A stretch of 64,000 bases of DNA from the NCBI GenBank assembly GCA_963725805.1, contig CAVSAF010000023.1, positions 88,201-152,200 on the forward strand, given 5' to 3'. How positions within the stretch are numbered: position 1 is the stretch's first letter; each line of letters begins with the position of its first letter. Under the pieces are notes generated by a model. That model made no database searches. It was given only the letters and a program-made list of their open reading frames with translations, and was not told where the DNA came from. Shown piece after piece: positions 1 to 64,000 of this stretch. Position numbers and translations under genes: made by a program. This DNA is from an uncultured Chloroflexia bacterium (GTDB lineage: Bacteria; Chloroflexota; Anaerolineae; Anaerolineales; Villigracilaceae).

Positions 1-1493
1 TGACCGTGCGTTATTTCAGTGTCGCCATGTCCCAAAGTCTGGTGGTTTGTTTGCTTGTATGGATATTATTCTTTACACTGGGACAGGGACGCCCGCGCTG
101 GCAAATTGTTGTCGGAGGGATGCTGACAGGCATTATGGTGATGACGCGTCAGAACATGGTGCCGGTTTTATTCATTCTTGCGGCATATATTTTCTGGCAG
201 CATGGTTGGAAGGTTGGAGCAATTCTGACAGCTGCTTGCATTCTTCCAATCTTGATCATGCACGTGATCTATTGGCCGGACATATTAAAAATGTGGGCGA
301 TTTACCTGCCAGTGCGATTGACGCCTTTTCTTGAACCATGGAGGCCGCCGGTTTTAATAGCAATTCAAAACCATCCGGATATATCTGCAATATGGCAGAG
401 TCTTCTGGACGGATTCCGTTATCATTTCGTGGCTCTGACCGGTGGGTTGCTGGCTCTATTTTTCTGGCCGGCTCGTAAAAACTGGAAAGACGGCAGCCAA
501 TTTCGCAATGTGGTCTTTCTGGCCACCTTGTTTGTAGTTCTTCTTGTACTCCATGCTTGGGCTGGACTTGGAAATACCGCCGCGAACAATAACAATGTGT
601 TTACGTTCAGCCCCTACCTGGCTTTCTTCGATTTCCTGGGTATCCTGGTCTTTATCAGCATCTTCAGTACTATTAAATATCGCCGCATTTCATTTGCAAA
701 AAGTGGCCTGGTTATTCTATTTTTAACGCTGCTCTCGGCTGGCATAGGAAGAGGGGATTTTGAGGTTATTGGCGATAAACTGGCGACCATCTCACTGCCA
801 CGCTTCCGTGACTTTTTCACAACGCTTCAATTCTTACCGGGCAAAGCTTACTTGTGGCAAATTCTCTTTAATAAATTTGGAATTGAATATGATACTTCCC
901 GCGTGCTCATACCAACAATCGTGGGGTTCCTGGCTGGCTTGTTGATAATTCTTCTCGGTTGGCTATTCTGGCTCTACCTGCGACGGAGATTCCCGCCACA
1001 GCTCACTTTTGCTTTGTTCATTGCCATGGGATTCCTGGTTACTGGTGTTATATTCACCCCTACCGTCATATTGGGAGGAGGTTTTCAGGAATGGAAATGC
1101 AACGGAAACACCCTGGAGGCCTATGAGAAGAGTGGTCATTACCTGGTTGAAGTAATTCCTCCGGGAAGCCGGGTGTTTTGGGGCGGGGGGAATGCTGCCG
1201 CGGCACTTTTGTACCTCCCGGAAATTCGGATATTTCCCCAGCAATTGGATTATCCCTATAATTTTTATCAAACCGGAAATTCTGACGAATTGGCCCGATA
1301 TGGATATTGGAATAAAGACCTGGCGCTACACTGGCAGGATGAAGCGGATGTGTTCATATTTCAAGAAATGGAATACACGCAAACATGGCAGGCGTACGTC
1401 AACACTGATGGTTTCACCGAGGCGCCTCAATTTACACAGGCACTTAATTGTGCCCCGGATACGTACCTGCGCGTATTTTTTCGGAAGCCTTAG
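1..1493 (+). CDS. Polytopic GT-C-like (ArnT/PMT_2-type) membrane glycosyltransferase candidate, 5'-truncated by the window edge; paralogue of 8555..10480
   Basis: The frame is open to the window edge (ORF track 6..1493 starts at an internal GTG). It has many hydrophobic helices. It aligns with the C-terminal ~495 aa of 8555..10480: TRQNMVPVLFILAAYIFWQHG vs TRQNMAPVLPVLLVYIFWQYG, GGGFQEWKCNGN vs GGGFNQWECSMN, PDTYLRVFFRKP vs PGTYLRIFIRKV. Confidence 0.6.
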   Translation, partial: TVRYFSVAMSQSLVVCLLVWILFFTLGQGRPRWQIVVGGMLTGIMVMTRQNMVPVLFILAAYIFWQHGWKVGAILTAACILPILIMHVIYWPDILKMWAIYLPVRLTPFLEPWRPPVLIAIQNHPDISAIWQSLLDGFRYHFVALTGGLLALFFWPARKNWKDGSQFRNVVFLATLFVVLLVLHAWAGLGNTAANNNNVFTFSPYLAFFDFLGILVFISIFSTIKYRRISFAKSGLVILFLTLLSAGIGRGDFEVIGDKLATISLPRFRDFFTTLQFLPGKAYLWQILFNKFGIEYDTSRVLIPTIVGFLAGLLIILLGWLFWLYLRRRFPPQLTFALFIAMGFLVTGVIFTPTVILGGGFQEWKCNGNTLEAYEKSGHYLVEVIPPGSRVFWGGGNAAAALLYLPEIRIFPQQLDYPYNFYQTGNSDELARYGYWNKDLALHWQDEADVFIFQEMEYTQTWQAYVNTDGFTEAPQFTQALNCAPDTYLRVFFRKP

Positions 1494-1499
1494 TTCGAC

Positions 1500-2732
1500 C
1501 TAGGTGACCCGAATGAACCAAAGTGTCCCAATAACATAGGAAATGATGGAGATCACGATAAGCAGGAGAATCAGCCATTTCGGCCATTTACGGAAACCGA
1601 TGGCAGTCAGCATCAAGAGCGGCATGGTAAAGTCCAGAGTGTAACGCGGTCCAAAGGTTTTCCATCCAGTCCCGATGTTCAAAAGGATTGGGATGGTAAC
1701 GGCTATCACGGTCAGCCATAATACGATGACCGAACTGCGCAGCTTGGGGATTAAAAGCGCCCAGAAACTGGCGAAGAAAAGCGGGCTAAGCAGGAATAGA
1801 CTTCCACCCATCAAGGTCATGTCAGATGCTGGAAATGGGTAGTAAATAAAGTTGTAGTAGAAATTCGTCAGCACATAATGTACATTGAAATGACCGTATT
1901 TCAGGAAATCCGGCTGGAAGAAATTTCCAAAGTCCTGGTAAGTGAGACCATATTCCAAAATGCTGCCAAAACGTAAATAGTTGTAGAGAAGGTTTAGAAG
2001 AACGCCAACCAGGATGGGTAGGGCAGCCACGAACAAATAGGAAATTATCTTCTTAATTTTTGCAGATTTGTGTGCCTGGATAAGGAACCAGGCGGGCCAT
2101 ATTCCAAGAAAAATCAGATGATTGCGAGTCAAGGTTGCGCATGCCAATGCCAGGCCGGTGAAGAAGAAGGCGGGATACCCTTTTAGCCGAACTGCAGCCA
2201 GGAAGGCCAGAATGCTGCACAGGAATGCGATCACCTGGCTGGTGAACCAGACGATGCCAAGGGAAGAAAGGAACAGGTGAACGGTTCCAAATGCAAAGAA
2301 AATGGTGAGAAGGCCGCGCTCACCGGCATCCACGGGGATCACGTTTTGTTTGTCGAGGACACGAAGAATATAAGCCACCAGCGCGACATTTAGCGCACCC
2401 AGGACCAGGGTGAAAAAAACATCACTGAATCCAACCCCAAAAATGGCAACAAATGGCATCATGAGAATGGCCGGGAAAGGGGGCCAGTACATGAAGTAAT
2501 GCCCGTTGAAAAGGGCTAGATCATGCAAGTTCGGCGGCACTACTCGTAAAGACAATTGTCCGTGTAAAAAAGCATCTGCCAGGTAATTAAAATAGGGGGA
2601 GCTGGATACACCGAATATAGGCCCACGCTTCGATGCAAACAGTGCATAAATACAGAAAGAAATTATTCCAGCAGAAATGGGTGATTCGAATAAATTCAGA
2701 AAGAACTTCCAGGCTCTGTCAAACCTATGCAT
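1500..2732 (-). CDS. Polytopic membrane protein, GT-C-like glycosyltransferase candidate
   Basis: 410-aa ORF and the only credible minus-strand gene. It is highly hydrophobic with many helices. The N-terminal loop YFNYLADAFLHGQLSL...FNGHYFMYWPPFPAIL resembles the first extracytoplasmic loop of ArnT/PMT_2-type enzymes. Confidence 0.5.
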   Translation of the reverse strand: MHRFDRAWKFFLNLFESPISAGIISFCIYALFASKRGPIFGVSSSPYFNYLADAFLHGQLSLRVVPPNLHDLALFNGHYFMYWPPFPAILMMPFVAIFGVGFSDVFFTLVLGALNVALVAYILRVLDKQNVIPVDAGERGLLTIFFAFGTVHLFLSSLGIVWFTSQVIAFLCSILAFLAAVRLKGYPAFFFTGLALACATLTRNHLIFLGIWPAWFLIQAHKSAKIKKIISYLFVAALPILVGVLLNLLYNYLRFGSILEYGLTYQDFGNFFQPDFLKYGHFNVHYVLTNFYYNFIYYPFPASDMTLMGGSLFLLSPLFFASFWALLIPKLRSSVIVLWLTVIAVTIPILLNIGTGWKTFGPRYTLDFTMPLLMLTAIGFRKWPKWLILLLIVISIISYVIGTLWFIRVT

Positions 2733-2839
2733 AACCCAGGCTCCTTATGTATATATGTTATGTGAGTATAATGGGTGTTCACACGGATTGGAAGGCCGAG
2801 GGCGCTGGCGTGCATGCAAATACCATCCGGGTATCCAAC

Positions 2840-4588
2840 ATGAAAACCTTTCGCTATTCCTCCTCTCAATCGCTCCACGATGTTCCAAGCAGCCAGGCCT
2901 CCCAAAAGAGCCGGCCTCTCTATGCGATTCGTTCCAACCCGCATGGGGTAAACAGGTGGGACTGGCTGTTCGTCTTGATTTTCCTGGCTTTCGCGGTCGT
3001 ATATTTCCTGGGACGTTTGCAAGGGAACTATCCGGTGGTCATCCTGACGGGCGATGGCGGAAATATTGCCAGTTATGCGGCTGCCCTTGATCACCCCGCC
3101 TGGTTTAAGTCCGACCCGGCCCTGGGCGCCTCAAATAATATCGGCATCTATGCCACCATCCATATTCCCCTGATCCGTGCCCTAAATCATCTGACCGGCG
3201 ACTACGGGCTGGCTTATGCCTGGCTGGTTCTTCCACAGACATTCCTGCAGCTGCTCGGCTTTTACATCCTGGGGCGCGTGCTCTTTAAGAACCGCTTCTG
3301 GGCTTTTTTGCTGGCCTTCCTGACCGCCATGACGGTCATCAATGTCGGCCTGGGTGAGATCTGGGGTGTCTGGCAGGATGCACTGCCGCGCGTCACCTTC
3401 CAGTCACTGCTGCCCTTCCTGCTTACGCTGACACTGGTCTGGAAAGACCGTCCCGGGCGCTGGCCCTGGCTGATGCTCTTTGCCGGTCTGCTGGTCTACG
3501 TCCACCCGATCAGCGCTCCGGCCTGGGGACTGGCCGTCTGGCTCAGCCTCTGGTTGTTGCTGCCCAAAGGTTGGTCCAGGAAACGACGAATCCTCACCAT
3601 GGTGGGACTGGGTGCCCTGTTCCTGGCAGTGCTCATACCTTTTACAATCAATTACCTGTCCTACCGTGGGCGCGACCAGGGTGCCGATTACAACACGGTT
3701 ATGGCAATTCTGCAAGCATTTTTGCCTGCCAACCTGCTCAATGTTCCGGCGGCGCTGGGGAGTTTTTTGTGGAATATGACCCGCAGCCTGCTCCTGCCAG
3801 TGGCATTGACCGGGATTGCGGCCACCTGGTTGCTGAAAAAGGACGACCGCACACCGGTCAAGATCGTTTTCCTGTGGATGGCAGGTATTTTCATCACCAG
3901 TGTCTTAATTCCATTTGCCGAGCAGTTGGTCGAGCAACGCTATCAAATCCTACCGCTCGAAACCGAACTGGTACGGTGTATCCGTTATTTCGTGCCCCTG
4001 CTCCTGCTGTTCTGGATTTGGCCTCTGGCGGAATGGACGCCGCGCCTCTCTACTCCGCTTGCCCGCCGGGCGGCCATAGCCCTGGGGATCGTGCTCTTGG
4101 GCTTTTGGAGTGCCACGAACCGTCCCGCCGTGCGGGATATTTACCAAACCTTCATCTGCTTCACGAAAGCGCGCCTGGTATGCGCGGCGCCAACTCCATT
4201 AAGTGAACTCATCCTTACCCTGCGTACCGGGACCCAGCCTGGCGAAGGAGTACTTTTTTTCAACCAGGATCCAGCCTACACATCCCAAACCCTGAGTGTT
4301 CGTTACGAGGCTTTGCGCCCGCTGGTTTACACGTCGCGTGATGGCGGTCTGCTGAGTTATGCCAACCGCTCTGCTCTCCCGGCCTGGATGGAGACTACCC
4401 GGCAGTGGGAAGCCTTGCGAGCCATGAATGATCCGCAGGAACGGCTGGTGGGATTAATTTCCATGGCAGGAACGCTCAAAGCTGATTACCTCATCATAGA
4501 TTTCAAAATTGCGCCAACATTTCTGGCTGGACTGCCGGTGAAGGTCTTGCTGCATAATGATGGATACACCCTGATTGAATTAAATTAG
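2840..4588 (+). CDS. Polytopic membrane protein with soluble C-terminal domain (GT-C-like or polymerase-like, function unknown)
   Basis: ORF track gives 2747..4588. I prefer the ATG at 2840 (MKTFRYSS) because the upstream part lies in the divergent intergenic region. More than 10 hydrophobic segments are followed by a ~150-aa hydrophilic tail. Confidence 0.45.
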   Translation: MKTFRYSSSQSLHDVPSSQASQKSRPLYAIRSNPHGVNRWDWLFVLIFLAFAVVYFLGRLQGNYPVVILTGDGGNIASYAAALDHPAWFKSDPALGASNNIGIYATIHIPLIRALNHLTGDYGLAYAWLVLPQTFLQLLGFYILGRVLFKNRFWAFLLAFLTAMTVINVGLGEIWGVWQDALPRVTFQSLLPFLLTLTLVWKDRPGRWPWLMLFAGLLVYVHPISAPAWGLAVWLSLWLLLPKGWSRKRRILTMVGLGALFLAVLIPFTINYLSYRGRDQGADYNTVMAILQAFLPANLLNVPAALGSFLWNMTRSLLLPVALTGIAATWLLKKDDRTPVKIVFLWMAGIFITSVLIPFAEQLVEQRYQILPLETELVRCIRYFVPLLLLFWIWPLAEWTPRLSTPLARRAAIALGIVLLGFWSATNRPAVRDIYQTFICFTKARLVCAAPTPLSELILTLRTGTQPGEGVLFFNQDPAYTSQTLSVRYEALRPLVYTSRDGGLLSYANRSALPAWMETTRQWEALRAMNDPQERLVGLISMAGTLKADYLIIDFKIAPTFLAGLPVKVLLHNDGYTLIELN

Positions 4589-4599
4589 CTTGATCGATC

Positions 4600-5703
4600 A
4601 TGAAAATAGTCTGTGTTTCTTTGTCGCATATCCCCTCTGATACAGCCAACAGCATCCAGGTGATGAAGGTCTGCCAGGCTTTTTCGCAAATGCAGCATGA
4701 AGTGATTCTGCTTGTCCCCGGCCTCCAACCTGAAGAGCTGGAGTCCGGTGCGCTGCAACGCCACTATGGTCTTCACACACTCTTCAAGATAGAATGGCTG
4801 GCCGCCCGTTCACGCCGGCTCTTCCCATGGACAGCCGTCAGGCATGCCCGCCGCCTTGGAGCGGATTTGTTGTACGTTTGGCCGCTCCAGGCCGCAGCGC
4901 TGGGCTTGCTGGTTGGTATTCCATCCATGCTGGAGTTACACGATTTTCCTGCCGGAAGGTTTGGACCGTTCTGGTTGCGTCTCTTCCTGTCTATCCCTGG
5001 CCGTAAACGTCTGCTACCGATCACCAACGCGCTGCGAGTTGCGTTGCACTTGCCAACTGCACAAACCGTCATTGTCCCCGACGGGGTGGACCTTGAGCGA
5101 TATGTCTCATTGCCGGATCCCCTATCCGCCCGTCATGAACTTGGCCTGCCTGATCTCCCCACTGTACTCTGCACAGGCCATCTTTATGAAGGTCGCGGGG
5201 TCGACTTGTTCCTGAGACTGGCGGATAAATTTCCACAGGCCAGTTTCGTCTGGGTGGGAGGGCGTTCTGCAGACGTGCAAATGTGGAAAGAACGCGCTTC
5301 CGTACAAGGCCTGACCAATGTCATCTTCACCGGCTTTGTTCCCAACGAGCGTATCCCGCTATACCAATCTGCTGCGGAAGTTTTGCTGATGCCCTACCAA
5401 CGGATTGTGGCTACCTCAAGCGGCGGGAATACTGCGGCGATATGCAGCCCAATGAAAATGTTTGAGTATATGGCTGCCGGAGGTGCCATCCTGACCAGCG
5501 ACCTGCCTGTCCTGCGCGAAGTATTGGATGAGAATGCCGCGGTATTCTGCCCGCCGGATGATGACGGAGTGTGGGAGTCTGCTCTTGGTGAGTTGCTGGT
5601 GGACAAAGAACGCAGGCAGGCTCTTGGTCAACGCGCACGCCAGCTTGTGGAACAATATACCTGGATCGAACGCGGCCGGCGTGCATTGGAAAACTTTTGG
5701 TAA
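4600..5703 (+). CDS. GT-B glycosyltransferase, family 1/GT4-like
   Basis: N-terminus MKIVCVSLSHIPSDTANSIQVMKVCQAF and C-terminal half ...LLMPYQ...SPMKMFEYMAAGGAILTSDLPVLREV are typical of the GT4 E-x7-E region. Confidence 0.75.
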   Translation: MKIVCVSLSHIPSDTANSIQVMKVCQAFSQMQHEVILLVPGLQPEELESGALQRHYGLHTLFKIEWLAARSRRLFPWTAVRHARRLGADLLYVWPLQAAALGLLVGIPSMLELHDFPAGRFGPFWLRLFLSIPGRKRLLPITNALRVALHLPTAQTVIVPDGVDLERYVSLPDPLSARHELGLPDLPTVLCTGHLYEGRGVDLFLRLADKFPQASFVWVGGRSADVQMWKERASVQGLTNVIFTGFVPNERIPLYQSAAEVLLMPYQRIVATSSGGNTAAICSPMKMFEYMAAGGAILTSDLPVLREVLDENAAVFCPPDDDGVWESALGELLVDKERRQALGQRARQLVEQYTWIERGRRALENFW

Positions 5704-5742
5704 GGTTCTTTGCTGCGATTATTATCCTTTACAGCCTGGAAA

Positions 5743-5770
5743 TTGAGAGGAATGAAAACCCCAGTATAAT
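5743..5770 (+). promoter_or_regulatory. Candidate sigma70-type promoter (TTGAGA-16 nt-TATAAT) upstream of the GT2 gene
   Basis: TTGAGA at 5743..5748 and TATAAT at 5765..5770 with a 16-nt spacer, inside the 147-bp AT-rich gap 5704..5850. Confidence 0.35.
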
Positions 5771-5850
5771 CAGGCAGAGCTTGTTTGGTTGAATTTGATC
5801 ATTATTCCAATAAAAGTGTAGGATAAGAACACCTCCCAATTCTGATAAAA

Positions 5851-6843
5851 ATGAATTCTTTTGTTGATCAATCCTTGCCTTCATTGGCAGTTGTCATTCC
5901 GGCATACCGCGTCGAACAAGAAATAGAAAGAGTTGTTCGTTCTATTCCTGTTTATGTACAGTATATTATTGTTGTTGATGATGCTTCCCCTGACCGGACA
6001 ACCGAGATTCTTAAGTCGCTGACGAGAGATGAACCGCGCCTCGTGCTTATTCGTCATGAGGTTAATCAAGGGGTTGGCGGCGCAGTGGTAAGCGGTTTTC
6101 GTAGAGCTCTTGAGCTGGGCGCGCAAATCGTGATAAAGATAGATGGCGATGGACAGATGGACCCTGCTTATATTATGGATTTGATCACCCCGCTCATGCT
6201 GGGTAAAGCGGATTATTCCAAAGGTAATCGCTTCCGCGACTTTGTCGCTTTACGCCATATGCCCATCATTCGTCGTTTTGGCAATATTATTCTGGGTTTT
6301 CTCACCAAAGTAGCCACTGGCTATTGGGGTATCTTCGACCCAACCAATGGTTACCTTGCCATTCGAACCGACATTCTGGCGCAGCTTCCGTTGGAGCGAA
6401 TCGCACGTGAGTATTATTTTGAAACCTCCATGTTGGCAGAACTATACCTTATCGATGCCTATGTTTTGGACATACCCATGCCAGCGCGCTATGGCGATCA
6501 GCCTTCCAGCCTGGTCATCCACCGGGTGTTGTTTGAGTTTCCTTTTCGGCTCTTGATCACTTTCTTAAGGCGAATGGCCTTGAGATATTTTCTTTACGAT
6601 TTCTCGCTGGTTTCAATTTATTTGCTGGGTGGAATTCCACTCTTTCTGTTTGGTCTGATCTTTGGCATTGTCAAATGGATCAAATATGCCACTTTAATGG
6701 TTCCAGCGCCAACGGGCACGGTTATTCTTCCGATGCTGTGTGTTATTCTCGGAATCCAATTTATTCTTTCAGCAATCCAAATCGACCTTCAATCCACTCC
6801 TCGTATTCCGCTTTCCCTGCCCTTGCAGAAAAACAATCTCTGA
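5851..6843 (+). CDS. GT2 polyprenyl-phosphate sugar synthase (GtrB/ArnC/DPM1-like) with C-terminal TM helices
   Basis: LAVVIPAYRVEQEI...IIVVDDASPDRT...IKIDGDGQMDP is the GT-A signature with DxD. Two C-terminal hydrophobic helices (LVSIYLLGGIPLFLFGLIFGIV, VILPMLCVILGIQFILSAI) match the GtrB/ArnC architecture. Confidence 0.7.
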   Translation: MNSFVDQSLPSLAVVIPAYRVEQEIERVVRSIPVYVQYIIVVDDASPDRTTEILKSLTRDEPRLVLIRHEVNQGVGGAVVSGFRRALELGAQIVIKIDGDGQMDPAYIMDLITPLMLGKADYSKGNRFRDFVALRHMPIIRRFGNIILGFLTKVATGYWGIFDPTNGYLAIRTDILAQLPLERIAREYYFETSMLAELYLIDAYVLDIPMPARYGDQPSSLVIHRVLFEFPFRLLITFLRRMALRYFLYDFSLVSIYLLGGIPLFLFGLIFGIVKWIKYATLMVPAPTGTVILPMLCVILGIQFILSAIQIDLQSTPRIPLSLPLQKNNL

Positions 6844-6971: not shown

Positions 6972-8558
6972 ATGAAAACCCTTCTGCGTGACCTGCGTTG
7001 GATCCTGCCTGCCAGTATTGGCCTGGGTCTGATTCTTTCCCTGCCCGGTCCGGGTATTTGGTGGATTGGATGGCTCGCTTACACCAGCCTGCTGTTTCTG
7101 GGCCTGTTGGCACTTTCGGCGTTATGGCGCTCGGCTGGTTCACCGCGAGCCTTGGGATGGATGTTGATATTGTCATTGGTTCTCCGCCTTGGGACAGGAA
7201 TTTTCTTCTCTTATGTGCTGCCTGTTTACGGAAATGTCAATGAGGTCCACCAGGGCGGCTACGTTTACCGGGATGCGTTCACTTACGATACCCAGGCCTG
7301 GAGTCTGGCTGCCTCGGGCGATCCGCTCTGGAAGGCTTTTGACCGATCCTATGGTATCGAAGAGCAGTATGGCGGGCTGACCTTCACTCTAAGCCTGGTT
7401 TATCGAGTGTTCAGCCCGGATGCGCACCGCCCCTGGCTGACCATTTTACTCTCCGCCTTGATGGGAGCACTCGGCGTGGGGCTGGCCTGGAAGGGAGCAC
7501 GGCAGGCCTGGGGGCAGGCTATGGCCCTGGCTCTGGGCTGGATCATGGCGCTCTACCCGGAAAGCCTGTTTTCAGGCGGTTCCCAGATCCGCGAACCGTT
7601 CCTGCTACTGTTCATTGCCATGCTCTTTTGGGCAATTACAACCTGGCTGGGAAACCGCCAACGCACAGCCTGGATCTGGCTTGCAGGAGGCACCCTTGGA
7701 TTGTTCCTGTTTTCGCCGGGTATTGCGGTAGCTGCTCTGGTTATTCTGGGTATCTGGGTCTGGCTGGCACGCAGGGAAGTTCATATCCGTTGGTGGTGGG
7801 TGGCGGGTGTGGCGGCAGTCATCCTGCTGGCAAGCTTTTTGTTCAGCCAGATTGTGGCTGGCACTCTCAAGGTCCAGGGGGGACCTCTGGCAAATCTGAT
7901 CAATTGGCTTAAATATTCAATGAATTTCGGCGCGTATGTCACAACGCTGAATTCCGGCTGGCTGCAAACGGTTTTTGAAACCTTGCCGAAATCATTGCAT
8001 CTCCCCTTTATCGTCGCATACGGGGTCGCACAACCGGTCCTTCCGGCTGCCGTTGCCGACCCGGCCGTATGGCCGGTGCGTTTGATTGGCATCTTGCGCG
8101 GCCTGGGGTGGTATGCATTACTGCCTCTCCTGGTCTACAGCCTGCGGCCAATCTGGAAGACGGAGGATAAACGCGAGCGGATGGCCTGGTTATGGCTATG
8201 GCTGGCAGTCTGGGTCTGGATTGTCGTGGCATCGGCGCGCGCCGGCGGCGACCAATGGGATAACCCGCGTTACCGGGTTATCCTGCTCATGTTCCAGGCG
8301 GTGCTGGCAGCTTACGCATTGATTTGGGCCCATCAGACCCGTGATCGCTGGCTGGGGCGCATCCTGGCCGTGGAGGGAGTCTTTCTGGTGCTGTTTGGTT
8401 ACTGGTATCTCAGTCGTTATTCCAGTGCGAATTTGAAAATCTTTAATATCTTCATTGTTTTTGCGGCCATCGCGGCCATCAGCCTGGCCATCCTTCTTGG
8501 CGGCTGGATCTGGGATCGGCGGCGTGTAAAAATGGAGATAAAGAAAGAAATGAGATGA
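6972..8558 (+). CDS. Polytopic membrane protein (GT-C-like or ligase/polymerase-like, function unknown)
   Basis: 528-aa ORF, W/L/G-rich with more than 10 hydrophobic helices. Its stop overlaps the next start (ATGA at 8555..8558). Confidence 0.4.
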   Translation: MKTLLRDLRWILPASIGLGLILSLPGPGIWWIGWLAYTSLLFLGLLALSALWRSAGSPRALGWMLILSLVLRLGTGIFFSYVLPVYGNVNEVHQGGYVYRDAFTYDTQAWSLAASGDPLWKAFDRSYGIEEQYGGLTFTLSLVYRVFSPDAHRPWLTILLSALMGALGVGLAWKGARQAWGQAMALALGWIMALYPESLFSGGSQIREPFLLLFIAMLFWAITTWLGNRQRTAWIWLAGGTLGLFLFSPGIAVAALVILGIWVWLARREVHIRWWWVAGVAAVILLASFLFSQIVAGTLKVQGGPLANLINWLKYSMNFGAYVTTLNSGWLQTVFETLPKSLHLPFIVAYGVAQPVLPAAVADPAVWPVRLIGILRGLGWYALLPLLVYSLRPIWKTEDKRERMAWLWLWLAVWVWIVVASARAGGDQWDNPRYRVILLMFQAVLAAYALIWAHQTRDRWLGRILAVEGVFLVLFGYWYLSRYSSANLKIFNIFIVFAAIAAISLAILLGGWIWDRRRVKMEIKKEMR

Positions 8559-13795: not shown

Positions 13796-13842
13796 TTAGA
13801 GCTGCCAACAGAATCAAACCGGGTGGCGCCATGCAGCGCTCC

Positions 13843-13870
13843 TTGACGGATTCCCGTTTGCGTTTATAAT
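13843..13870 (+). promoter_or_regulatory. Near-consensus sigma70 promoter (TTGACG-16 nt-TATAAT) for the wHTH regulator and downstream operon
   Basis: TTGACG at 13843..13848 and TATAAT at 13865..13870 with a 16-nt spacer, 42 nt upstream of the ATG at 13912. Confidence 0.55.
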
Positions 13871-53313: not shown

Positions 53314-54132
53314 ATGCAATCAACCCCGATTTATGATTCAGCCCAATTAATTCCGCACGCCCTCCAGGAACTGAAGGAAGCATTGAATTACCGTCACCTG
53401 CTTTTCCAACTGGTGCGACGTGATATTGTTGCTCGCTATAAACGCTCCTTCCTTGGCGTGGCCTGGACCATGCTCAGCCCACTGGGTATCATGCTGGTTC
53501 TCAGCTTCGTCTTTTCTCAACTGTTTGGCCAGATCCGCGCATACCCTGCCTACATATTATGTGGCCTGATGGCCTGGAATTTCTTTTCCCAGAGCACCAT
53601 GATGGCAATAAGCAGCCTGGTTTGGGGAGGCGGATTGCTGCAACGCATTTATATCCCGCGTGCTGCTTTTGGCATCTCCGCGATTGGATCGGGCATGGTT
53701 AACCTGATCTTATCCTTTGTACCACTCATTATTGTGATGGCCATCACAGGGGTATCGCTCCGGATCACAGTAGCTTTCCTGCCAGTTTCTCTACTATTAC
53801 TGGCCTGTTTCACCCTCGGCCTGGGCCTGACGATTTCGACACTGGCAGTCTATTTCCCTGATGTGGCCGAGATGTACCAGATCATCCTGACTGCCTGGAT
53901 GTACCTGACTCCGATCATTTATCCGGAGACGATCTTTCCGGCCAAATACGCATTGATCTTGCATCTAAATCCCTTATATTACCTGGTCAAACTCTGGCGC
54001 CTGCCATTGTATGATGGGCGTTGGCCCACTTGGGGTGAGATCTGGCCGGCCATGGTGATAGCTTTCGGGATGTTGTTGGTGGGATGGCTCATCTTTACCT
54101 CAAAATCCGATGAATTTGCCTATCGTGTCTGA
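53314..54132 (+). CDS. wzm: ABC-2 type polysaccharide export permease (Wzm-like), copy 2
   Basis: YRHLLFQLVRRDIVARYKRSFLGVAWTMLSPL motif plus 6 TM helices. Confidence 0.85.
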   Translation: MQSTPIYDSAQLIPHALQELKEALNYRHLLFQLVRRDIVARYKRSFLGVAWTMLSPLGIMLVLSFVFSQLFGQIRAYPAYILCGLMAWNFFSQSTMMAISSLVWGGGLLQRIYIPRAAFGISAIGSGMVNLILSFVPLIIVMAITGVSLRITVAFLPVSLLLLACFTLGLGLTISTLAVYFPDVAEMYQIILTAWMYLTPIIYPETIFPAKYALILHLNPLYYLVKLWRLPLYDGRWPTWGEIWPAMVIAFGMLLVGWLIFTSKSDEFAYRV

Positions 54133-54904
54133 GTCGCTTAGGATAATTGCTGAGGATTCTGTGACTAATCTTGTGGAGGCTGTTCATCTCGAGGCTGTTT
54201 CAGTACGCTACCGTGTGCCCAGCGAACGTGTTGGCAGCTTTAAAGAATATTTTATCCGCCGGCTGAAAGGCCAGGTCCAAATGCGTACGTTCTGGGCACT
54301 ACAGGATGTCAGCTTTGAGGTTAACCGGGGCGAGGTGTTCGGACTGGTAGGGGTTAACGGAGCCGGCAAGAGCACACTTCTCAAGGTGGTGGCACGCGTC
54401 CTGCGTCCCACCCGGGGCCGGGTGGTGGTTAGAGGCAGGGTGGCACCTCTGCTGGAGCTGGGCGCTGGTTTCCACCCGGAACTGACTGGTGAAGAGAATA
54501 TCTACCTGAACGGTGCCTTGCTGGGTTTCAGTCGCCATGAAATGCAGGAAAAATATGACCAGATCGTGGATTTCTCCGAACTGGGTGAGTTCATCAATGC
54601 TCCCATCCGGACCTATTCCTCTGGTATGTACGCTCGCCTGGGCTTTTCAGTCGCCACTGCCAGCGAGCCGGATGTCTTGATCGTGGACGAAGTTCTATCC
54701 GTCGGGGACGAGGCCTTCCAGAAGAAATGTGAGGCGCGTATCAATGCCTTTCGCCAACGCGGCGCAGCCATTTTGTTGGTCTCTCACACCATGGCCACGA
54801 TCGAGGAAATGTGCCAGCGGGCTGCCTGGCTGGATCATGGGACCTTAAAGGCCATTGGAGAGCCTACCCAGGTCATCCAGGCTTATCGGGAAAGGGGAAG
54901 TTGA
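54110..54904 (+). CDS. wzt: ABC exporter ATPase (Wzt-like), copy 2, no C-terminal binding domain
   Basis: Walker A GVNGAGKST, signature YSSGMYARLGF, Walker B VLIVDEVL. It ends about 20 aa after the H-loop (264 aa). The exact start is uncertain (23-nt overlap with wzm). Confidence 0.8.
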   Translation: MNLPIVSESLRIIAEDSVTNLVEAVHLEAVSVRYRVPSERVGSFKEYFIRRLKGQVQMRTFWALQDVSFEVNRGEVFGLVGVNGAGKSTLLKVVARVLRPTRGRVVVRGRVAPLLELGAGFHPELTGEENIYLNGALLGFSRHEMQEKYDQIVDFSELGEFINAPIRTYSSGMYARLGFSVATASEPDVLIVDEVLSVGDEAFQKKCEARINAFRQRGAAILLVSHTMATIEEMCQRAAWLDHGTLKAIGEPTQVIQAYRERGS

Positions 54905-58465: not shown

Positions 58466-61400
58466 ATGAATAATAAACATAAAACGCTGGCACAACTATA
58501 TTCAGAACATAAGGGTAAAGTATCTGACAAGTGGACACGTTACTTCTCGGAGTATGATACCCTTTTTGAGGAATTTCGTGACAGATCTGTTCGAATGCTG
58601 GAAATTGGTGTTCAAAATGGTGGAGGATTGGAGATCTGGGCACGTTATTTTAGGAATGGGTTGAAATTTATCGGCTGCGACATCGATCCAAACTGTGCCG
58701 CTCTTCGTTTTGATGATCCGCGCATCGAATTGGTGATAGGGGATGCCAACGACGATTCAACTCAAAAAGAGATTCTGTCTCACAGCCCGGAGTTGGACAT
58801 AGTGATCGATGATGGGTCACACTGGTCGGGCGATATAGTCCGTTCCTTTCTGAGATACTTTTCCAATTTGGTGGATGGCGGTGTGTATGTGGTGGAAGAT
58901 CTGCACACCAGTTACTGGAAGGAATATGAGGGAGGCCTGTTTGACCCATTTTCCTCCATCACTTTCTTCAAGCGACTGATAGATATTGTTAACTCCGAGC
59001 ATTGGGGGGTTGAGCGACCGCCTGCAGACATTTTGGCGGGCTTCCAGGAAAAGTATGGCGTGAGAGTCACTGCAGAAATATTGCAGCATATACACTCCAT
59101 TAAATTTACCAACTCGTTGTGTGTCATCATGAAATCCCGGTCGTCCGATAATAAACTGGGGAGGCGTTTTGTTGTTGGCGATGTTGCGGCTGTTAAATCC
59201 GATTTGAAGCAATATGATGAGAGTTTCATTGTGCCTTTGCCGCAAAATCAAAATCCCTGGTCCGTGCGAATTCGTCCGCCTGATGAAGAACTTCCCGAGC
59301 GCGAGCAGGAGGTGATGGCGCTGACAGAACAAATGGAAGCGAAAGAACAGGCTCTCCAGGCCATGGCAGAACAGGTGACGGAAAAGGAGCGGTCCATGCA
59401 GGGGCTCTCAGCGCAGCTGGCAGAGAAGGAGCAGGCCGTTCACATGCTCTCAGCGCAGCTGGCAGAGATTAATAATAGCAGGGCATGGAAGATCGCGTTA
59501 TTGTTACGCCGAATCCGCATCTTGTTTGCTCCTCCCAATAGCCGTCGCGCAAGGGTGTTACGGCGAATGATCAATGCGATATTTTCCCCATTTATCAAAA
59601 TCAGAAGAAACCTGAAATCCAAAAGAGAATCCGCCTTAATCAAGTCATCAGGTTTATTTGATGAAACATGGTATTTAGCCCAAAATCCTGACGTCGCCCT
59701 GGCAAAGGAGAATCCACTTCTTCATTATCTTCACAATGGTGGTTTCGAAGGTCGCGACCCCAGCCCAGGTTTTTCCAGCCAGAGATATCTGGACAATAAT
59801 CCGGATGTGCGGGCCGCAGGAATCAACCCGCTGGTGCATTACTTACGATTTGGTAAGAAAGAAGAACGATCGCCATTTCGCGACCAGATAATAAACACCC
59901 ATTTACAGAACAAAACCTCTGAAGAGAGCAAATTTTCACATTCTTTGCGGATGTTTCGAAGATATTTACTGCAACAACATCCACGTTTTTTTCATTTTTT
60001 GCGTAACATAATACCTCCTGCGATCCGTCTGAAAATTACTAAATATTTGGTTGGCGATGAGGACAATACCATTAGAGCACCATTATCTCGTGGAAGCTCT
60101 AAATTGTTGGAGAACCCCTTGGTACATGAAGAAAACGTTAAGGAATATGAAACTCTGTTACGAAGGATTCAAGAGATTTCCCAACTGAATACGAAAGAGG
60201 TTTCTATTAAAGCTCCCAGGCTAATCTCGTTGAGAGAGGACCACTTAGCTCTGATGCAAGCTGCTCAAACCATCAAATTACCATCAAGCCAGACGCCGAA
60301 AGTATCTGTCGTGATCCCGGTTCATAATAACGCGAAGCTTTTATTGGAGTGTTTAAGCTCCCTGCAAAATGACGTAACATTGAATGATTTTGAAATTTGT
60401 GTGGTGGACGATTCTTCTGATGGTGAGAATCGGGAAATTATTGAAAACATAACCGGAATCAAGCAGGTTCACAATCAAGAACGCATAGGTTTTGGGCGTT
60501 CATGTAATATCGGTGCTCAAATATCCGAAGGAGAGTTTCTCCTATTCTTAAATGACGATGCACAAATGATGGAAGGTGCAATCAATTCCTTGTTGCACAC
60601 CTTTGAAACACATTCAGAGACAGGAGCTGCGGGACCGAAGATGTTATATCCGTCCGGCCTTCTACAGGAAGCCGGCTGCGCAATAAATATCGATGGGACG
60701 GTCACCATGATCGGGCATGGGGATGATCCGGTATTGCAACGATACAATTACTTGCGAGAAGTAGATTATGTCTCGGGTGTTTGCTTAATGGTGAGGAAGG
60801 ATCATTTTAATGCAGTGGGGGGTTTTGAGGAGGCTTACACCCCTGCATATTATGAAGACGTCGATTTGTGCTTGAAATTACGGGAAAAGGGACTAAAGAT
60901 CTTTTATAACCCCGACTCCGTTGTCGTGCATCATCTAAGTGCTACTACTTCTGGATTATACGGTCAAAAAACCAAATTGGACCTTGTGGCTCGTAATCGA
61001 CAGAAGCTGCTGGAACGCTGGCAACCAAAAATTGATGAACTGAATCAAATACGATTGATTGCATTTTACTTGCCCCAGTTTCATCCCATCCCAGAAAATG
61101 ATATATGGTGGGGGAAAGGGTTTACTGAGTGGCAAAATGTTGTTAGTGCTCATCCTTTTTTTGGTGGACATTATCAACCTCACTTGCCAGCAGATTTGGG
61201 TTTCTATGATTTGCGGGTACCCGAGGTCATGGAACAACAGGCAGAGTTGGCGAAACGGTATGGTATTTATGGGTTTTGTTACCATTATTACTGGTTTAAT
61301 GGTAAACGCCTTTTAGAGATGCCCTTGGAGAGAATGCTTGAGACCGGACGTCCCGATTTCCCCTTTTGCTTATGCTGGGCCAATGAGAATTGGTCGCGCA

Positions 61401-62110
61401 AGTGGGATGGCGGCGAGAAAGACATCTTGATTGCGCAAAAGCATTCTGATGAAGATGATTTGTCCGTTATCCTGGATTTGATCAGGTATTTTAAGCATCC
61501 CAATTATATAAGGGTGGATGGGAAACCCATGTTTTTGGTGTATCAGGTTAATTTATTCCCTGACTTTAAAAGGACAGCCCGGATTTGGCGCGAAGAGTGC
61601 CGTAGACAACGAATTGGTGAAATCCATTTGGTGATGGCTGAGACTTTTTCGCTGTCGTTGGAGCAATCAGATCCCAAAGAGTTTGGTATGGATGCGGCAG
61701 TACAATTTCCTCCCCATGGATATTGGGAGCCCATAGGCCCTGCAAATATGGCCTCTGACTTTAGAGGCCAAGTATTGGATTATAAAAACACAGCATTACA
61801 TTTCATCAAGAAAAAATTTCCGGGTTTTGTTTATTACCAGACTGTAATGCCATCCTGGGATAATACCGCGCGAATGAAAAACAGGGCTGTTATTTTTGCC
61901 AACTCCTCGCCAGGAACTTACCAGGCCTGGCTGGAGGAAGCCATTCGGAATACGCGCGAACAATATTCAGGTGATCATCGTATCGTCTTTATTAATGCCT
62001 GGAATGAGTGGGCGGAAGGAAATCACCTTGAACCAGACCAGCGTTATGGACACGATTTTTTGCAGGCAACGCGTAATGCTGTGGAATATTGGTTGATAGG
62101 AACAGGATAA
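58466..62110 (+). CDS. Multidomain SAM-methyltransferase / coiled coil / NPDV-repeat / GT2 / WbsX-like protein; candidate chain-terminating and chain-extending enzyme (WsaE/WbdD-like logic)
   Basis: aa 1-225: CmcI-type MTase (MLEIGVQNGGGLEIW...GCDIDP...VIDDGSH...VVEDL). aa ~275-340: heptad-rich EQMEAKEQALQAMAEQVTEKERSMQGLSAQLAEKEQAVHMLSAQLAE. aa 398-470: two ~37-aa YLxxNPDV...NPLxHYL repeats. aa 612-835: GT2 (VSVVIPVHNN...VVDDSSDG...FLNDD). aa 862-1214: WbsX-type (IAFYLPQFHPIPENDIWWGKGFTEWQNV). Confidence 0.7.
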   Translation: MNNKHKTLAQLYSEHKGKVSDKWTRYFSEYDTLFEEFRDRSVRMLEIGVQNGGGLEIWARYFRNGLKFIGCDIDPNCAALRFDDPRIELVIGDANDDSTQKEILSHSPELDIVIDDGSHWSGDIVRSFLRYFSNLVDGGVYVVEDLHTSYWKEYEGGLFDPFSSITFFKRLIDIVNSEHWGVERPPADILAGFQEKYGVRVTAEILQHIHSIKFTNSLCVIMKSRSSDNKLGRRFVVGDVAAVKSDLKQYDESFIVPLPQNQNPWSVRIRPPDEELPEREQEVMALTEQMEAKEQALQAMAEQVTEKERSMQGLSAQLAEKEQAVHMLSAQLAEINNSRAWKIALLLRRIRILFAPPNSRRARVLRRMINAIFSPFIKIRRNLKSKRESALIKSSGLFDETWYLAQNPDVALAKENPLLHYLHNGGFEGRDPSPGFSSQRYLDNNPDVRAAGINPLVHYLRFGKKEERSPFRDQIINTHLQNKTSEESKFSHSLRMFRRYLLQQHPRFFHFLRNIIPPAIRLKITKYLVGDEDNTIRAPLSRGSSKLLENPLVHEENVKEYETLLRRIQEISQLNTKEVSIKAPRLISLREDHLALMQAAQTIKLPSSQTPKVSVVIPVHNNAKLLLECLSSLQNDVTLNDFEICVVDDSSDGENREIIENITGIKQVHNQERIGFGRSCNIGAQISEGEFLLFLNDDAQMMEGAINSLLHTFETHSETGAAGPKMLYPSGLLQEAGCAINIDGTVTMIGHGDDPVLQRYNYLREVDYVSGVCLMVRKDHFNAVGGFEEAYTPAYYEDVDLCLKLREKGLKIFYNPDSVVVHHLSATTSGLYGQKTKLDLVARNRQKLLERWQPKIDELNQIRLIAFYLPQFHPIPENDIWWGKGFTEWQNVVSAHPFFGGHYQPHLPADLGFYDLRVPEVMEQQAELAKRYGIYGFCYHYYWFNGKRLLEMPLERMLETGRPDFPFCLCWANENWSRKWDGGEKDILIAQKHSDEDDLSVILDLIRYFKHPNYIRVDGKPMFLVYQVNLFPDFKRTARIWREECRRQRIGEIHLVMAETFSLSLEQSDPKEFGMDAAVQFPPHGYWEPIGPANMASDFRGQVLDYKNTALHFIKKKFPGFVYYQTVMPSWDNTARMKNRAVIFANSSPGTYQAWLEEAIRNTREQYSGDHRIVFINAWNEWAEGNHLEPDQRYGHDFLQATRNAVEYWLIGTG
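59404..59468 (+). repeat. Perfect 23-bp direct repeat (gctctcagcgcagctggcagaga) at 59404..59426 and 59446..59468, offset 42 bp
   Basis: Read directly from the sequence. It encodes LSAQLAE twice, 14 codons (two heptads) apart, inside the coiled-coil segment. Confidence 0.9.
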
Positions 62111-62120
62111 TCAAAAGAAA

Positions 62121-63263
62121 ATGACAACCAATTCCTTGGACAATCCCGTGATTGTTGGCAAGCCTTTTGCACCCACGGGAAGAGGTGTTACAGCTCTGAG
62201 CCATTTTAGGGCTCTTCGCCAGGCGGGTGTTTCGACCTCGGTCTGTGACGTGGGTTCAAGACAGGAGATAAATCAGCCCAGGCCTGGCATTGCAAATGAG
62301 CTGGGAAAATTTCTTATAAACAAACCCGGCCGTTCGATCAATATTTATCATTTAAATGCGGATGAGATAGAGCACGCACAGGCAGTATTGAAGCATTCTT
62401 TGCCGGACGGCGCCTACAATATAATCTACCCATTCTGGGAGTTAAGTAAGTATCCCCAAAAGTATCTGGATTCCTTGGCGGTTTTTGATGAAGTCTGGGC
62501 ACCGTCGAAGTTTATTGAAGATGCCCTCCGTGATGGAATCTCCAAACCGATCTATCACATGCCCTTGCCAGTGGAAATCAGCCTATCCTCTTTTCTCGGG
62601 AGAAGTTATTTTGGCATCCCGGATAGCTCATATGTCCTCCTTTTTTTCTTCGATTTCCGATCCTATCTTGAACGGAAGAATCCGCAGGCCCTGCTTCAGG
62701 TTGTTGAGAAAGTTTTATCCTCACGGCCGTACGGAGATATTCGCATAGTTCTTAAAGTGCATGGTATCGACGTCTCTCCAAAAACAGCCGGCGATTATAG
62801 GGATTTCCTTGATCAAATCCGCGAGAGAAATATTAAGGATCGGGTGATTGTTCTAGAGAAAGTTTATTCAGATAATGAAATGAGAAATTTGGTCCGTTGC
62901 TGCGATTGTTTTGTTTCTCTTCATCGCTCTGAAGGCTTTGGGCTCGGCATGGCCGAGGCGATGTACCTGGGGAAACCCGTCGTTGCAACCGCATATTCTG
63001 GTAACATGGATTTTATGAACGAAAACATATCCTGTCTGGTTGATTATAGACTTATTCCAGTTGAGGAAGGACAATATCCATTTCCGGATGGACAGGTTTG
63101 GGCGGACCCGGATCTGGATCAGGCTGCATATTTCGTACAGAAGCTTTTCGATGACCGTAATTATGGGAGAGAGATTGGTCAACTCGCTAGTCGCCATATC
63201 CGTACCAATTTCAGTTATTTATCGATGGGTTTACGCTATAAATGGCGGCTTGACCAGTTATAA
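62121..63263 (+). CDS. GT-B glycosyltransferase, family 1/GT4-like
   Basis: ...CFVSLHRSEGFGLGMAEAMYLGKPVVATAYSGNMDFM is the GT4 E-x7-E region. Confidence 0.7.
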   Translation: MTTNSLDNPVIVGKPFAPTGRGVTALSHFRALRQAGVSTSVCDVGSRQEINQPRPGIANELGKFLINKPGRSINIYHLNADEIEHAQAVLKHSLPDGAYNIIYPFWELSKYPQKYLDSLAVFDEVWAPSKFIEDALRDGISKPIYHMPLPVEISLSSFLGRSYFGIPDSSYVLLFFFDFRSYLERKNPQALLQVVEKVLSSRPYGDIRIVLKVHGIDVSPKTAGDYRDFLDQIRERNIKDRVIVLEKVYSDNEMRNLVRCCDCFVSLHRSEGFGLGMAEAMYLGKPVVATAYSGNMDFMNENISCLVDYRLIPVEEGQYPFPDGQVWADPDLDQAAYFVQKLFDDRNYGREIGQLASRHIRTNFSYLSMGLRYKWRLDQL

Positions 63264-63358
63264 TTTGCTATGCTTAACAATTGCTTTCATCATCATGTTA
63301 GGAAACTTTATTGCCACAATCGGTATCCCGAAAGAGTAACGGCAAAATCCTGCAAGGT

Positions 63359-63378
63359 AAATAATCGAGAGATTATTT
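63359..63378. repeat. 8-4-8 perfect inverted repeat AAATAATC-GAGA-GATTATTT in a 272-bp AT-rich intergenic region
   Basis: Read directly: 63359..63366 and 63371..63378 are reverse complements. Confidence 0.8.
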
Positions 63379-63535
63379 CAGGAGTCTTGCAAAGTGCAGT
63401 AATTTATGCTCAACAATTAAAATTAGCCCCTGGATTTCGGGGAAAATAAAGGGCATATCTGCATCAACACTGGAATGATTCTTATCCAAAAGTAAGCGTA
63501 TTATTTAGGTCATAAAGCCAAGGATCTTTCGTTTT

Positions 63536-64000
63536 ATGTTAAAAAATAAGTCATCTTTCTTATTATCAAATATTGGTTCATTTTTATTTCTTTTCTTGTT
63601 TATTGCTTTGGCATTATGCCTGGTTTTTTCAAAAGGTGTGTGTTGTGCTGACGATGCTTATTATGCAATGACTGCCAAGAACCTTGCCAATGGATTAGGG
63701 TATGCTAATTCTTTACCGCAAGATCAAGCTCGGTTTACCCTGCAACCATTTGATGCTTGGTCCGGAGTAGGCCCTACAATTATCCTTCCGGCTGCTCTTT
63801 TTATAAAGGTTTTTGGCAATACCTATTGGGCACCAGGTTTGGCGAGTGTTTTTCTTTGGTCTTTGTTGCTCGTTCTTATAGGATTTTACATAAGAAAAAA
63901 AGAGCATGGGTTTGGATTTATCTTTTTCACTTTATCTTTTTTATTTCTCAGTTATTCTTTAATGACATGGCATTTTGAGCAGTGGTATGCACTGCTTGGT
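63536..64000 (+). CDS. GT-C (ArnT/GT39-83-like) membrane glycosyltransferase, 3'-truncated by the window edge
   Basis: Not in the ORF track because no stop is reached. My translation from ATG 63536 is MLKNKSSFLLSNIGSFLFLFLFIALALCLVFSKGVCCADDAYYAMTAKNLANGLGYANS...PTIILPAALFIKVFGNTYWAPGLASVFLWSLLLVLIGFY. The DDAYY loop after TM1 is the ArnT/PMT-type catalytic-loop signature. Confidence 0.55.
   Translation, partial: MLKNKSSFLLSNIGSFLFLFLFIALALCLVFSKGVCCADDAYYAMTAKNLANGLGYANSLPQDQARFTLQPFDAWSGVGPTIILPAALFIKVFGNTYWAPGLASVFLWSLLLVLIGFYIRKKEHGFGFIFFTLSFLFLSYSLMTWHFEQWYALLG

Follow-up and report, generated by a model that had tools for sequence, protein, structure and literature searches.

The 64,000-nucleotide stretch analysed here (hereafter the window), which comes from an uncultured Chloroflexia bacterium of the Villigracilaceae (contig CAVSAF010000023.1, positions 88,201 to 152,200), encodes twelve large polytopic membrane proteins, named M1 to M12 in order along the window, and at least nine of these are candidates for glycosyltransferases (GTs) of the GT-C type, each on positive evidence from family matches or from predicted structure, depending on the member. 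The reading that we favour, at a probability of about 0.55, is that the window covers part of a large island of cell-envelope glycan genes, with a scaled-up, multi-component form of extracytoplasmic glycosylation, following the mycobacterial logic in which one donor feeds many GT-C enzymes. Under this reading, cytoplasmic GT-A and GT-B enzymes would make polyprenyl-linked glycans or a glycolipid primer, and two Wzm/Wzt systems and a Wzx would export them; a GT2 enzyme encoded at 5851..6843 would load polyprenyl phosphate (Pren-P) with a single sugar; a Wzx-type flippase would carry this Pren-P-sugar donor outward, as proposed for GacK; and at the outer face the GT-C paralogs would each use the same donor sugar, or donors whose synthesis is encoded elsewhere in the genome, to modify different positions or acceptors. 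In this scheme we infer the donors, the acceptors, the use of the donors at the outer face and the link to polymers exported by the ABC systems.

GT-C candidates among the twelve polytopic proteins

A large multi-helix protein is present at each of the twelve positions listed in a first-pass annotation of this DNA, as judged from open reading frames (ORFs), hydropathy and translation. Hydropathy gives 7-12 transmembrane (TM) helices for most of the twelve, with a crude count of only 4 for M3 and with M12 present as a fragment. According to the ORF list, the genes of the window form a near-continuous run on the plus strand, on which M1, M3 to M12, the GT4 and GT2 genes at 4600..5703 and 5851..6843 and both ABC systems lie; the cluster had been described as co-directional, which fits most of its genes but not M2 (1500..2732), which lies on the minus strand. 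Nor are all twelve proteins complete, as M1 and M12 are cut by the ends of the window and M9 and M11 are frameshifted. A frame correction of one base was needed in three genes, namely at ~33,222 in a GmhA-like SIS isomerase gene (33064..33628; SIS_2 8e-30 after merging of the frames), at ~41,450 in M9 and at ~51,200 in M11. Because three indels fall within 64 kb, one of them in the housekeeping-type GmhA-like gene, assembly errors rather than pseudogenes or gene decay are the suggested, though unproven, cause.

All twelve proteins had been proposed to be GT-C-like. Evidence of this kind was found for nine of them (M1, M3, M4, M5, M6, M7, M8, M10, and M11), while it is weak for M2, consists of a motif only for M12, and is lacking for M9. 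None of the twelve could be classified with transporters or with Wzy/WaaL-type proteins, so that the outcome which the first-pass annotation had named as refuting its proposal was not observed; scans of all twelve against Pfam and NCBIfam, at E values of up to 10, gave no transporter, Wzy_C, O-antigen-ligase, EpsG, or acyltransferase match. Direct matches to GT-C families were sparse in these scans; a Pfam gathering cut-off (26.1 bits for PMT_2, PF13231; 24.5 bits for PIG-U; 25 bits for GT87) was passed by M7, M10, and M11 only, and nothing was returned for the M1 fragment, M3, M4, M6, M8, M9, and M12.

Most of the members with family-level evidence relate to PMT_2. M10 (49343..50863) matches PMT_2 at 3.8e-16 (60.2 bits), as does its paralog M11 (50879..52385) at 2e-11 (44.8 bits); the two ORF pieces of M11, which result from the frameshift, are colinear with M10 at 34% and 41% identity. 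M5 (8555..10480) has a PMT_2 match below the cut-off (8.2e-5, 23.3 bits) and carries, following TM1, the IDEGLYLY motif reported in the first-pass annotation. M1 (6..1493, within 1..1493) comprises the C-terminal 495 amino acids of a probable PMT_2-type GT-C and is a paralog of M5, with 43% identity to M5 residues 142-635; its full-length ortholog in a related locus, L004, has 628 amino acids and an unmarked precomputed match to PF13231 (loci of relatives are labelled L001, L002, L003, L004, L005-L008, L011, and L013). M4 (6972..8558), the end of which overlaps the start of M5 by 4 nucleotides, has 12 TM helices and two invariant acidic residues (D101 and D106), and is classed as PMT_2-like through its 1496 homologs, since about one in six of those listed have a precomputed PF13231 match and some are named GT39 or ArnT-like. 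The label "OafA/YrhL acylase", which some M4 orthologs carry at JGI, was rejected, as no Pfam match backs an acylase. Finally, M7 (12575..13795) appears to be a GT87/PIG-U-type GT-C; it scores 27.1 bits against PIG-U, above the cut-off, and 23.8 bits against GT87, just under it, and its ortholog in L011 has a weak MptA_B_family match.

M8 (33691..35430) was assigned through its relatives. Its family has 9139 representatives, and among 42 that were aligned, 6 match YfhO (PF09586; best 6e-8), 5 match PTPS_related, and one each matches PMT_2, DUF6044, DUF6311, and GT-C_AftD; D48 is invariant. The main families matched are, we take it, members of the Pfam GT-C clan. As the M8 sequence itself has no YfhO match, M8 is best described as a YfhO relative and not as a demonstrated YfhO member. 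All-against-all local hhalign comparisons gave weak colinear signals, the best being those between the M8 profile and the M10/M11 profile (P 2e-5) and between M6 and M10 (P 3e-4), which support relatedness but do not prove it; comparison of the M4 profile with the single M10 or M5 sequence was uninformative. Profile searches of the PDB with family alignments of M4, M8, and M9, and single-sequence searches with M2 and M7, yielded nothing usable, so that solved GT-C structures are out of reach by sequence alone. Acidic residues near the N-terminus are invariant in M3 (D72 and D92), M4, M8, and M9, and occur as motifs in M5 and M12, in loops that are presumed to be extracytoplasmic.

For M3 and M6, the two of the twelve for which AlphaFold2 (AF2) models were built and compared with the PDB by Foldseek, the top matches are solved GT-C enzymes, which bears out the GT-C reading of these two proteins. 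M3 (2840..4588), for which 182 homologs were found, gave a model with pLDDT 86.1 and pTM 0.87 that matches DPY19 (E 6e-7), ArnT, ALG3, AftD, and Pmt1/Pmt2 with probabilities of 0.94-1.0, the next matches being at 0.41 or below. M6 (10495..12525) belongs to a large family (1315 homologs), and all 120 of the homologs listed are without a Pfam domain and unnamed or "hypothetical". Its model, from a 52-sequence alignment (pLDDT 87.7, pTM 0.89), has seven top matches that are all GT-C, namely AftA (two chains; E 7.9e-5, probability 1.0), ArnT, PimE (two entries), and PglB (two entries); beyond these, probabilities are 0.09 or lower. Across both models, GT-C matches have probabilities of 0.77-1.0 versus at most 0.41 for non-GT-C matches, and neither WaaL nor SEDS is among the listed top matches of M3 or M6. 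Both models show ~13-16 membrane-region helices and a C-terminal alpha/beta domain; in the M6 loop corresponding to the acidic loop no invariant acidic residue was found. The M3 and M6 families are thus predicted from these models to fold as GT-C enzymes, yet no Pfam or NCBIfam model detects them. The soluble C-terminal domains of M3 (~444-580) and M8 (~454-576) are similar (hhalign P 5.8e-5) and could be a shared extracytoplasmic acceptor-binding module.

The remaining three proteins are weakly classified or unclassified. M2, a 410-amino-acid protein with ~8 TM helices, is a possible GT-C; it has no Pfam or PDB match, and its sole match is to the NCBIfam LA_3751/LA_3752 putative glycosyltransferase family (E 8.5e-6, residues 75-402), far under the cut-off. 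M9 (40025..41723; ~565 amino acids, ~11 TM helices) has seven orthologs of ~570 amino acids that share an invariant loop, WDAGLYHFPKAAEM...YGEYPFGYES, with D111 and E122 invariant, and a soluble C-terminal domain; neither these orthologs nor the seven-sequence profile matched anything in Pfam or the PDB. In relatives, the neighbours of M9 are a Capsule_synth-like GT (L005-L008) and a cytidylyltransferase (L005, L006, and L008). M12 (63536..64000) is represented by its N-terminal 154 amino acids, which have no Pfam or NCBIfam match; it is suspected to be a GT-C from its DDAYY loop motif, which had been reported earlier and is present.

Candidate donor synthase, flippase, and conserved core

The gene at 5851..6843 encodes a GT2 protein (Pfam GT2 8e-22) that ends in two to three TM helices (at ~221, 256, and 291) and is by sequence a candidate polyprenyl-phosphate-sugar synthase. 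Its best PDB match is the Pyrococcus dolichol-phosphate mannose synthase 5mlz (8e-13), and its top NCBIfam matches, all under the equivalog cut-offs, are AglJ (1.4e-17), PpgS (3e-14), and haloarchaeal dolichyl-phosphate hexose transferase. PpgS is the mycobacterial polyprenyl-phospho-GalNAc synthase. The earlier count of only one DPM1/GtrB-like synthase holds within the window, where no GT2 other than 5851..6843 has TM helices at its C-terminus; the other GT2 domains (at 21911, 24720, 48399, and 52389, and one in 58466..62110) have no TM helices, and those at 48399, 52389, and 58466..62110 match cytoplasmic chain-building GT2s in the PDB or NCBIfam. The two GT2s that flank M10 and M11 (48399..49346 and 52389..53171) were considered as additional Pren-P-sugar synthases and rejected, as they match chondroitin-synthase-type GT2s best.

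The best NCBIfam match of the synthase, AglJ, belongs to an S-layer N-glycosylation pathway, and this, together with the PMT_2/PMT family matches and with the protein C-mannosyltransferase DPY19 as the best structural match of M3, would fit an alternative in which the PMT_2-type members are protein glycosyltransferases (cf. actinobacterial Pmt and eukaryotic PMT/DPY19) that decorate secreted, S-layer, or appendage proteins and not polysaccharides. We regard this alternative as quite improbable, because the genes sit in a polysaccharide locus (Wzm/Wzt, rmlABCD, NeuB, KpsC/S-like, TagF-like), because no candidate gene for a target protein was found within the window, and because characterised PMT_2 proteins in such loci (GacL, GtlB, CsdD, and GtsC) act on wall polymers (PMC8035078).

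With regard to the flippase, neither a flippase gene nor a GtrA-like ORF was seen within the window. A small GtrA-like flippase hidden in a gap between genes was considered and rejected, as the sole sizeable gap (33027..33691) holds the frameshifted GmhA-like gene. In two syntenic relatives, L004 and L011, a Polysacc_synt (Wzx) gene stands directly before the array. The first-pass annotation had missed this link to Wzx, which in the closest relative lies just upstream of the region that corresponds to the window and in many M3 homologs is fused to M3 itself. In L001, the Wzx::M3 fusion (3197..6310; 1037 amino acids) consists of an N-terminal Wzx/Polysacc_synt part of ~460 amino acids and a C-terminal M3-type GT-C of ~550 amino acids, and 64 of the 120 best M3 homologs are of fusion size (~1035 amino acids). 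The two parts are encoded by separate genes both in L004 and in the source genome of the window, and M1 and M2 lie between them. A full-text literature search found no description of a Wzx::GT-C fusion, which is absence of evidence only.

The best relatives are metagenome-assembled genomes labelled Anaerolineales, Chloroflexota, or "uncultured Chloroflexia", and comparison of their loci shows a small core that is kept within an array that varies. The closest relative found, L004 (an ENA contig), is syntenic, with 91-94% amino-acid identity for M3 and M4, and has Ugd together with Wzx immediately upstream of the stretch that matches the window. L011 (M4 identity 76%) has Ugd, Wzx, M3, GT2, GT4, M4, M5, M6, three extra polytopic proteins (two of them PMT_2), and M7; its GT2 has 309 amino acids and C-terminal TM helices and is 29% identical to 5851..6843. 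In L001 the order is Ugd, the Wzx::M3 fusion, GT2, GT4, M4, M5, MarR, an epimerase, Wzm, and Wzt, and M1, M2, M6, and M7 are not part of the array, while L002 has Ugd, Wzx, GT4, M4, M5, and one more weak PMT_2 protein. M4 is present in L001, L002, L003, L004, and L011; Wzm/Wzt follow M5 at a distance of a few genes in L001, L002, and L004; and the GT4 (4600..5703), a predicted cytoplasmic GT-B enzyme (Pfam Glycos_transf_1) with weak NCBIfam matches to glycolipid-anchor GTs, is kept at ~70% in L001, L002, and L011. The conserved core hence comprises Ugd, Wzx, GT4, M4, and M5 adjoining Wzm/Wzt, with M3 and GT2 frequent and M1, M2, M6, M7, and others variable, and the core, together with its position beside Wzm/Wzt, is retained at identities ranging from 91% to ~55%. 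The single observation that points to exported polymers as possible acceptors is that M4-M5 stay next to Wzm/Wzt in relatives. In L013 (10001..11971), an M6 homolog of 42% identity stands by itself in a housekeeping neighbourhood (nadA, a glycerol-kinase-like gene, and dnaA are close by), so that the M6 family is not restricted to glycan islands.

As L002 has no local GT2, its core GT-C proteins may use a donor made elsewhere or a Wzx-flipped glycan on polyprenyl diphosphate (Pren-PP). This is the main point for a second alternative, in which part of the array, above all M3 and the core pair M4/M5, uses Wzx-flipped Pren-PP-oligosaccharides and takes polymerase, ligase, or oligosaccharyltransferase roles (the jobs of Wzy, WaaL, and PglB) instead of transferring single sugars. 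The fusion of M3 to Wzx in about half of its homologs, the lack of any Wzy_C or O-antigen-ligase family protein across the window, and the presence of PglB among the structural matches of M6 are further arguments for it. We nevertheless consider it rather unlikely: the high-probability matches of M3 are all users of Pren-P-monosaccharides, with PglB, WaaL, and SEDS not among its listed top matches; M1, M4, M5, M10, and M11 relate to PMT_2, the ArnT/PMT-type family; the GtrB-like GT2 adjoins M3 in L001 and L011 and is one gene away from it in the window; and GacK provides a precedent for a Wzx-type flippase of a Pren-P-sugar (PMC8035078).

The variability of the array bears on a third alternative, namely that there is no integrated machine and that the window is a hypervariable surface-glycan locus, accreting modules and paralogs by duplication and horizontal transfer, with some of them decaying. 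Besides the differences in array content among relatives such as L001 and L011, including replacement of the GT2 by a version of only 25-29% identity, this alternative would account for the recent paralog pairs (M1/M5, M10/M11, and the GT2s at 48399 and 52389), for the frameshifts in two of the twelve proteins (M9 and M11), for a drop in GC content to 0.43 at 60-64 kb, and for the lone M6 homolog. Against it stand the core and Wzm/Wzt adjacency kept over so wide a range of identity and the tight spacing and overlapping stop and start codons, which suggest co-transcription; moreover, the third frameshift, in the GmhA-like gene, points to assembly errors. We therefore judge accretion without integration to be improbable.

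Export systems and other genes of the island

The first-pass annotation was right to place two ABC-2 export systems in the window, as both ABC2_membrane and ABC_tran domains are found. System 1 (15473..17640) consists of a Wzm permease and a Wzt ATPase with a C-terminal carbohydrate-binding domain (Wzt_C), and system 2 (53314..54904) of Wzm and Wzt; the top NCBIfam match of both permeases is a galactan exporter permease (Wzm/RfbD for system 1). Further genes on the island include rmlABCD, methyl-, pyruvyl-, and acetyl-transferases, two GT4s, a TagF-like protein, and two KpsC/S-like (Capsule_synth) proteins. Three NeuB-type ulosonic-acid synthases (29275..30162, 35515..36393, and 36415..38304), one of them fused to SAF and xylose-isomerase-like TIM-barrel domains, and three CMP-sugar-type cytidylyltransferases (at 27121..29188 and 41795..42463) suggest that the products may contain more than one ulosonic/nonulosonic acid sugar. 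Three proteins match the BFO_1060 glycosyltransferase family weakly (17577..19229, 38305..39942, and 25757..27199), two of which also match Capsule_synth and one Glyphos_transf.

Two further polytopic proteins, encoded at 42511..44046 and 45067..46647, are not GT-C candidates; they are paralogs of the sulfatase superfamily, 31% identical to one another, in which 4-5 TM helices at the N-terminus are combined with an outer domain of that superfamily (Pfam Sulfatase 1.5e-5). Their architecture is presumably LtaS/EptA-like, and they may add phospho-substituents outside the cell. L008 has up to five tandem copies of this type of protein (7..1180, 8420..9943, 10960..12519, 13075..14634, and 15698..16474), two of them partial at the ends of the locus. 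An MptE-like (DUF115) protein is encoded at 47584..48396, between a short-chain dehydrogenase/reductase gene and the block of GT2, M10, and M11; the same DUF115 domain occurs in Maf-type putative nonulosonic-acid transferases.

The protein encoded at 58466..62110 has 1214 amino acids, with a methyltransferase-like N-terminal region, a coiled coil at ~270-340, the GT2 domain mentioned above, and a WbsX domain, an arrangement somewhat like that of the coiled-coil proteins that regulate or terminate chain length in O-antigen pathways dependent on ABC transporters. The GC content, which is 0.50-0.55 elsewhere in the window, falls to 0.43 at 60001..64000, a segment that spans the end of this gene, a GT4, and M12 and that may have been recently acquired. 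Finally, no initiating phosphoglycosyltransferase of the WecA/MraY or WbaP type, no LCP ligase, and no protein of the Wzy/WaaL families was detected in the window, so that priming and anchoring steps would be encoded elsewhere or by unrecognised proteins.

Relation to known systems and meaning for the envelope

The favoured reading, extracytoplasmic glycosylation with many GT-C enzymes to a donor, shares its parts with the three-component systems (GtrA/GtrB/Gtr*, CsbB/GtcA/YfhO, GacI/J/K/L, and Citrobacter youngae ORF12-15, with a GT136 enzyme), in which a membrane-anchored GT2 makes the Pren-P-sugar, a flippase moves it, and an outer GT-C transfers it. The Wzx-type flippase GacK works with the PMT_2-type GT-C GacL, and one flippase or synthase can be common to several GT-C enzymes (PMC8035078). 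GacK and the MATE protein of ORF13/14 are flippases of the Wzx/MOP type, as found in the relatives here, and three-component systems also act on ABC-transporter-dependent polymers (PMC8035078, PMC11127046), as when O-antigens exported in this way are modified by a GT-C with a MATE flippase (PMC11127046). The window differs from these systems in having at least nine GT-C genes with one synthase, in containing several members from families without a Pfam or NCBIfam model, in having no GtrA-type protein, and in that the flippase is fused to a GT-C (M3) in relatives.

The comparison that the first-pass annotation drew with mycobacterial arabinan and mannan assembly proves apt. In mycobacterial and corynebacterial assembly of arabinogalactan, lipomannan (LM), and lipoarabinomannan (AftA-D, EmbA-C, PimE, and MptA-C), one lipid-phosphate donor, decaprenylphosphoryl arabinose (DPA) or polyprenyl-phosphomannose (PPM), supplies a set of many GT-C enzymes, which are distinguished by linkage or acceptor. 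Because one such donor serves many GT-C enzymes there, the ratio of many GT-C proteins to one synthase in the window is not paradoxical; several mycobacterial GT-C enzymes are known to draw on DPA (PMC11127046). Cytoplasmic priming by GT4 enzymes and galactan export by Wzm/Wzt, the top NCBIfam match of both permeases of the window, are further likenesses, and the solved structures that M3 and M6 match best include AftA, AftD, and PimE. Differences are that there is no sequence-level orthology to Emb, Aft, or Mpt proteins beyond fold and weak family matches; that DPPR synthase and DprE genes are lacking, the synthase being DPMS/AglJ/PpgS-like; and that the organism belongs to a different phylum with an uncharacterised envelope. 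The combination of Ugd, GT4, flippase, Pren-P-sugar synthase, and Mpt/PimE-like GT-C proteins also resembles, speculatively and by analogy, the assembly of an LM-type lipoglycan on a glycolipid primer.

The ArnT pathway (Ugd, ArnA-D, ArnE/F, and ArnT) has counterparts in the Ugd, the flippase, the ArnC-like GT2 with C-terminal TM helices, and the PMT_2/GT83-type GT-C proteins of the relatives, and ArnT ranks among the top structural matches of each of the two modelled proteins, M3 and M6; unlike that pathway, the island has many GT-C proteins instead of one, and homologs of ArnA, ArnB, and ArnD were not identified. Lipid A is not expected to be the acceptor, because Chloroflexota are reported to be without a lipopolysaccharide (LPS) pathway (PMC13319060). 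As in Wzx/Wzy-dependent polymerisation, Wzx adjoins or is fused to a polytopic protein bearing a periplasmic domain; in contrast to it, no member matches Wzy_C or O-antigen-ligase models, and the M3 and M6 models match ArnT, DPY19, AftA, and PglB types and not WaaL or SEDS.

Several observations weigh against the favoured reading. M2, M9, and M12 are not demonstrably GT-C, and characterised systems tabulated from Firmicutes mostly have one GT-A per GT-C (PMC8035078). The GT2 at 5851..6843 is not a fixed partner of the array, as identity between relatives is only 25-29% and its position shifts, and the array of L002 has neither M3 nor a GtrB-like GT2. As to the notion of one "extracytoplasmic glycan-elaboration line", put forward in the first-pass annotation, the variable array around the small core and the lone M6 homolog argue against one obligatory line. 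The Foldseek TM-scores of M3 and M6 are modest as well (0.39-0.47), which is unsurprising for distant multi-domain membrane proteins; we consider the exclusivity of the GT-C matches to be the stronger argument.

While the principle is known, in that extracytoplasmic glycosylation by GT-C enzymes from Pren-P-sugars is established, the island extends it and adds new members. New are the scale, as a single island holds nine or more genes with GT-C evidence, the Wzx::GT-C fusion, two large families predicted to fold as GT-C, and one unclassified family (M9). The M6 family, with more than 1300 homologs, and the M3 family provide testable examples of predicted GT-C folds missed by sequence models, and a natural fusion of flippase and GT-C could help to show how the flipping of a lipid-linked sugar is coupled to its transfer. 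Chloroflexota are an abundant phylum, most members of which are uncultured. In genomes of sponge-associated Chloroflexi, ArnT-like GT83 enzymes are among the three most abundant GT families, with no function assigned (PMC6306507), and the island gives this abundance a genomic setting, an ordered, partly conserved array near polymer exporters, a donor synthase, and a flippase. The multilayered envelope of Chloroflexota is without LPS and BAM pathways, and polysaccharides or proteins have only been suggested as the material of its layers (PMC13319060). A bolder proposal, which we hold to be doubtful but worth stating, is that a major glycan or lipoglycan of the Anaerolineales envelope is assembled for the most part beyond the membrane, by a set of GT-C enzymes like that of mycobacteria; this set would include at least two to three families absent from Pfam, NCBIfam, and CAZy (M3, M6, and perhaps M9) and would be headed by a single-polypeptide Wzx::GT-C "flip-and-transfer" enzyme directly coupling the translocation of a lipid-linked sugar to its transfer. 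If this were true, such an assembly line could yield the unexplained extra layers of the Chloroflexota envelope.

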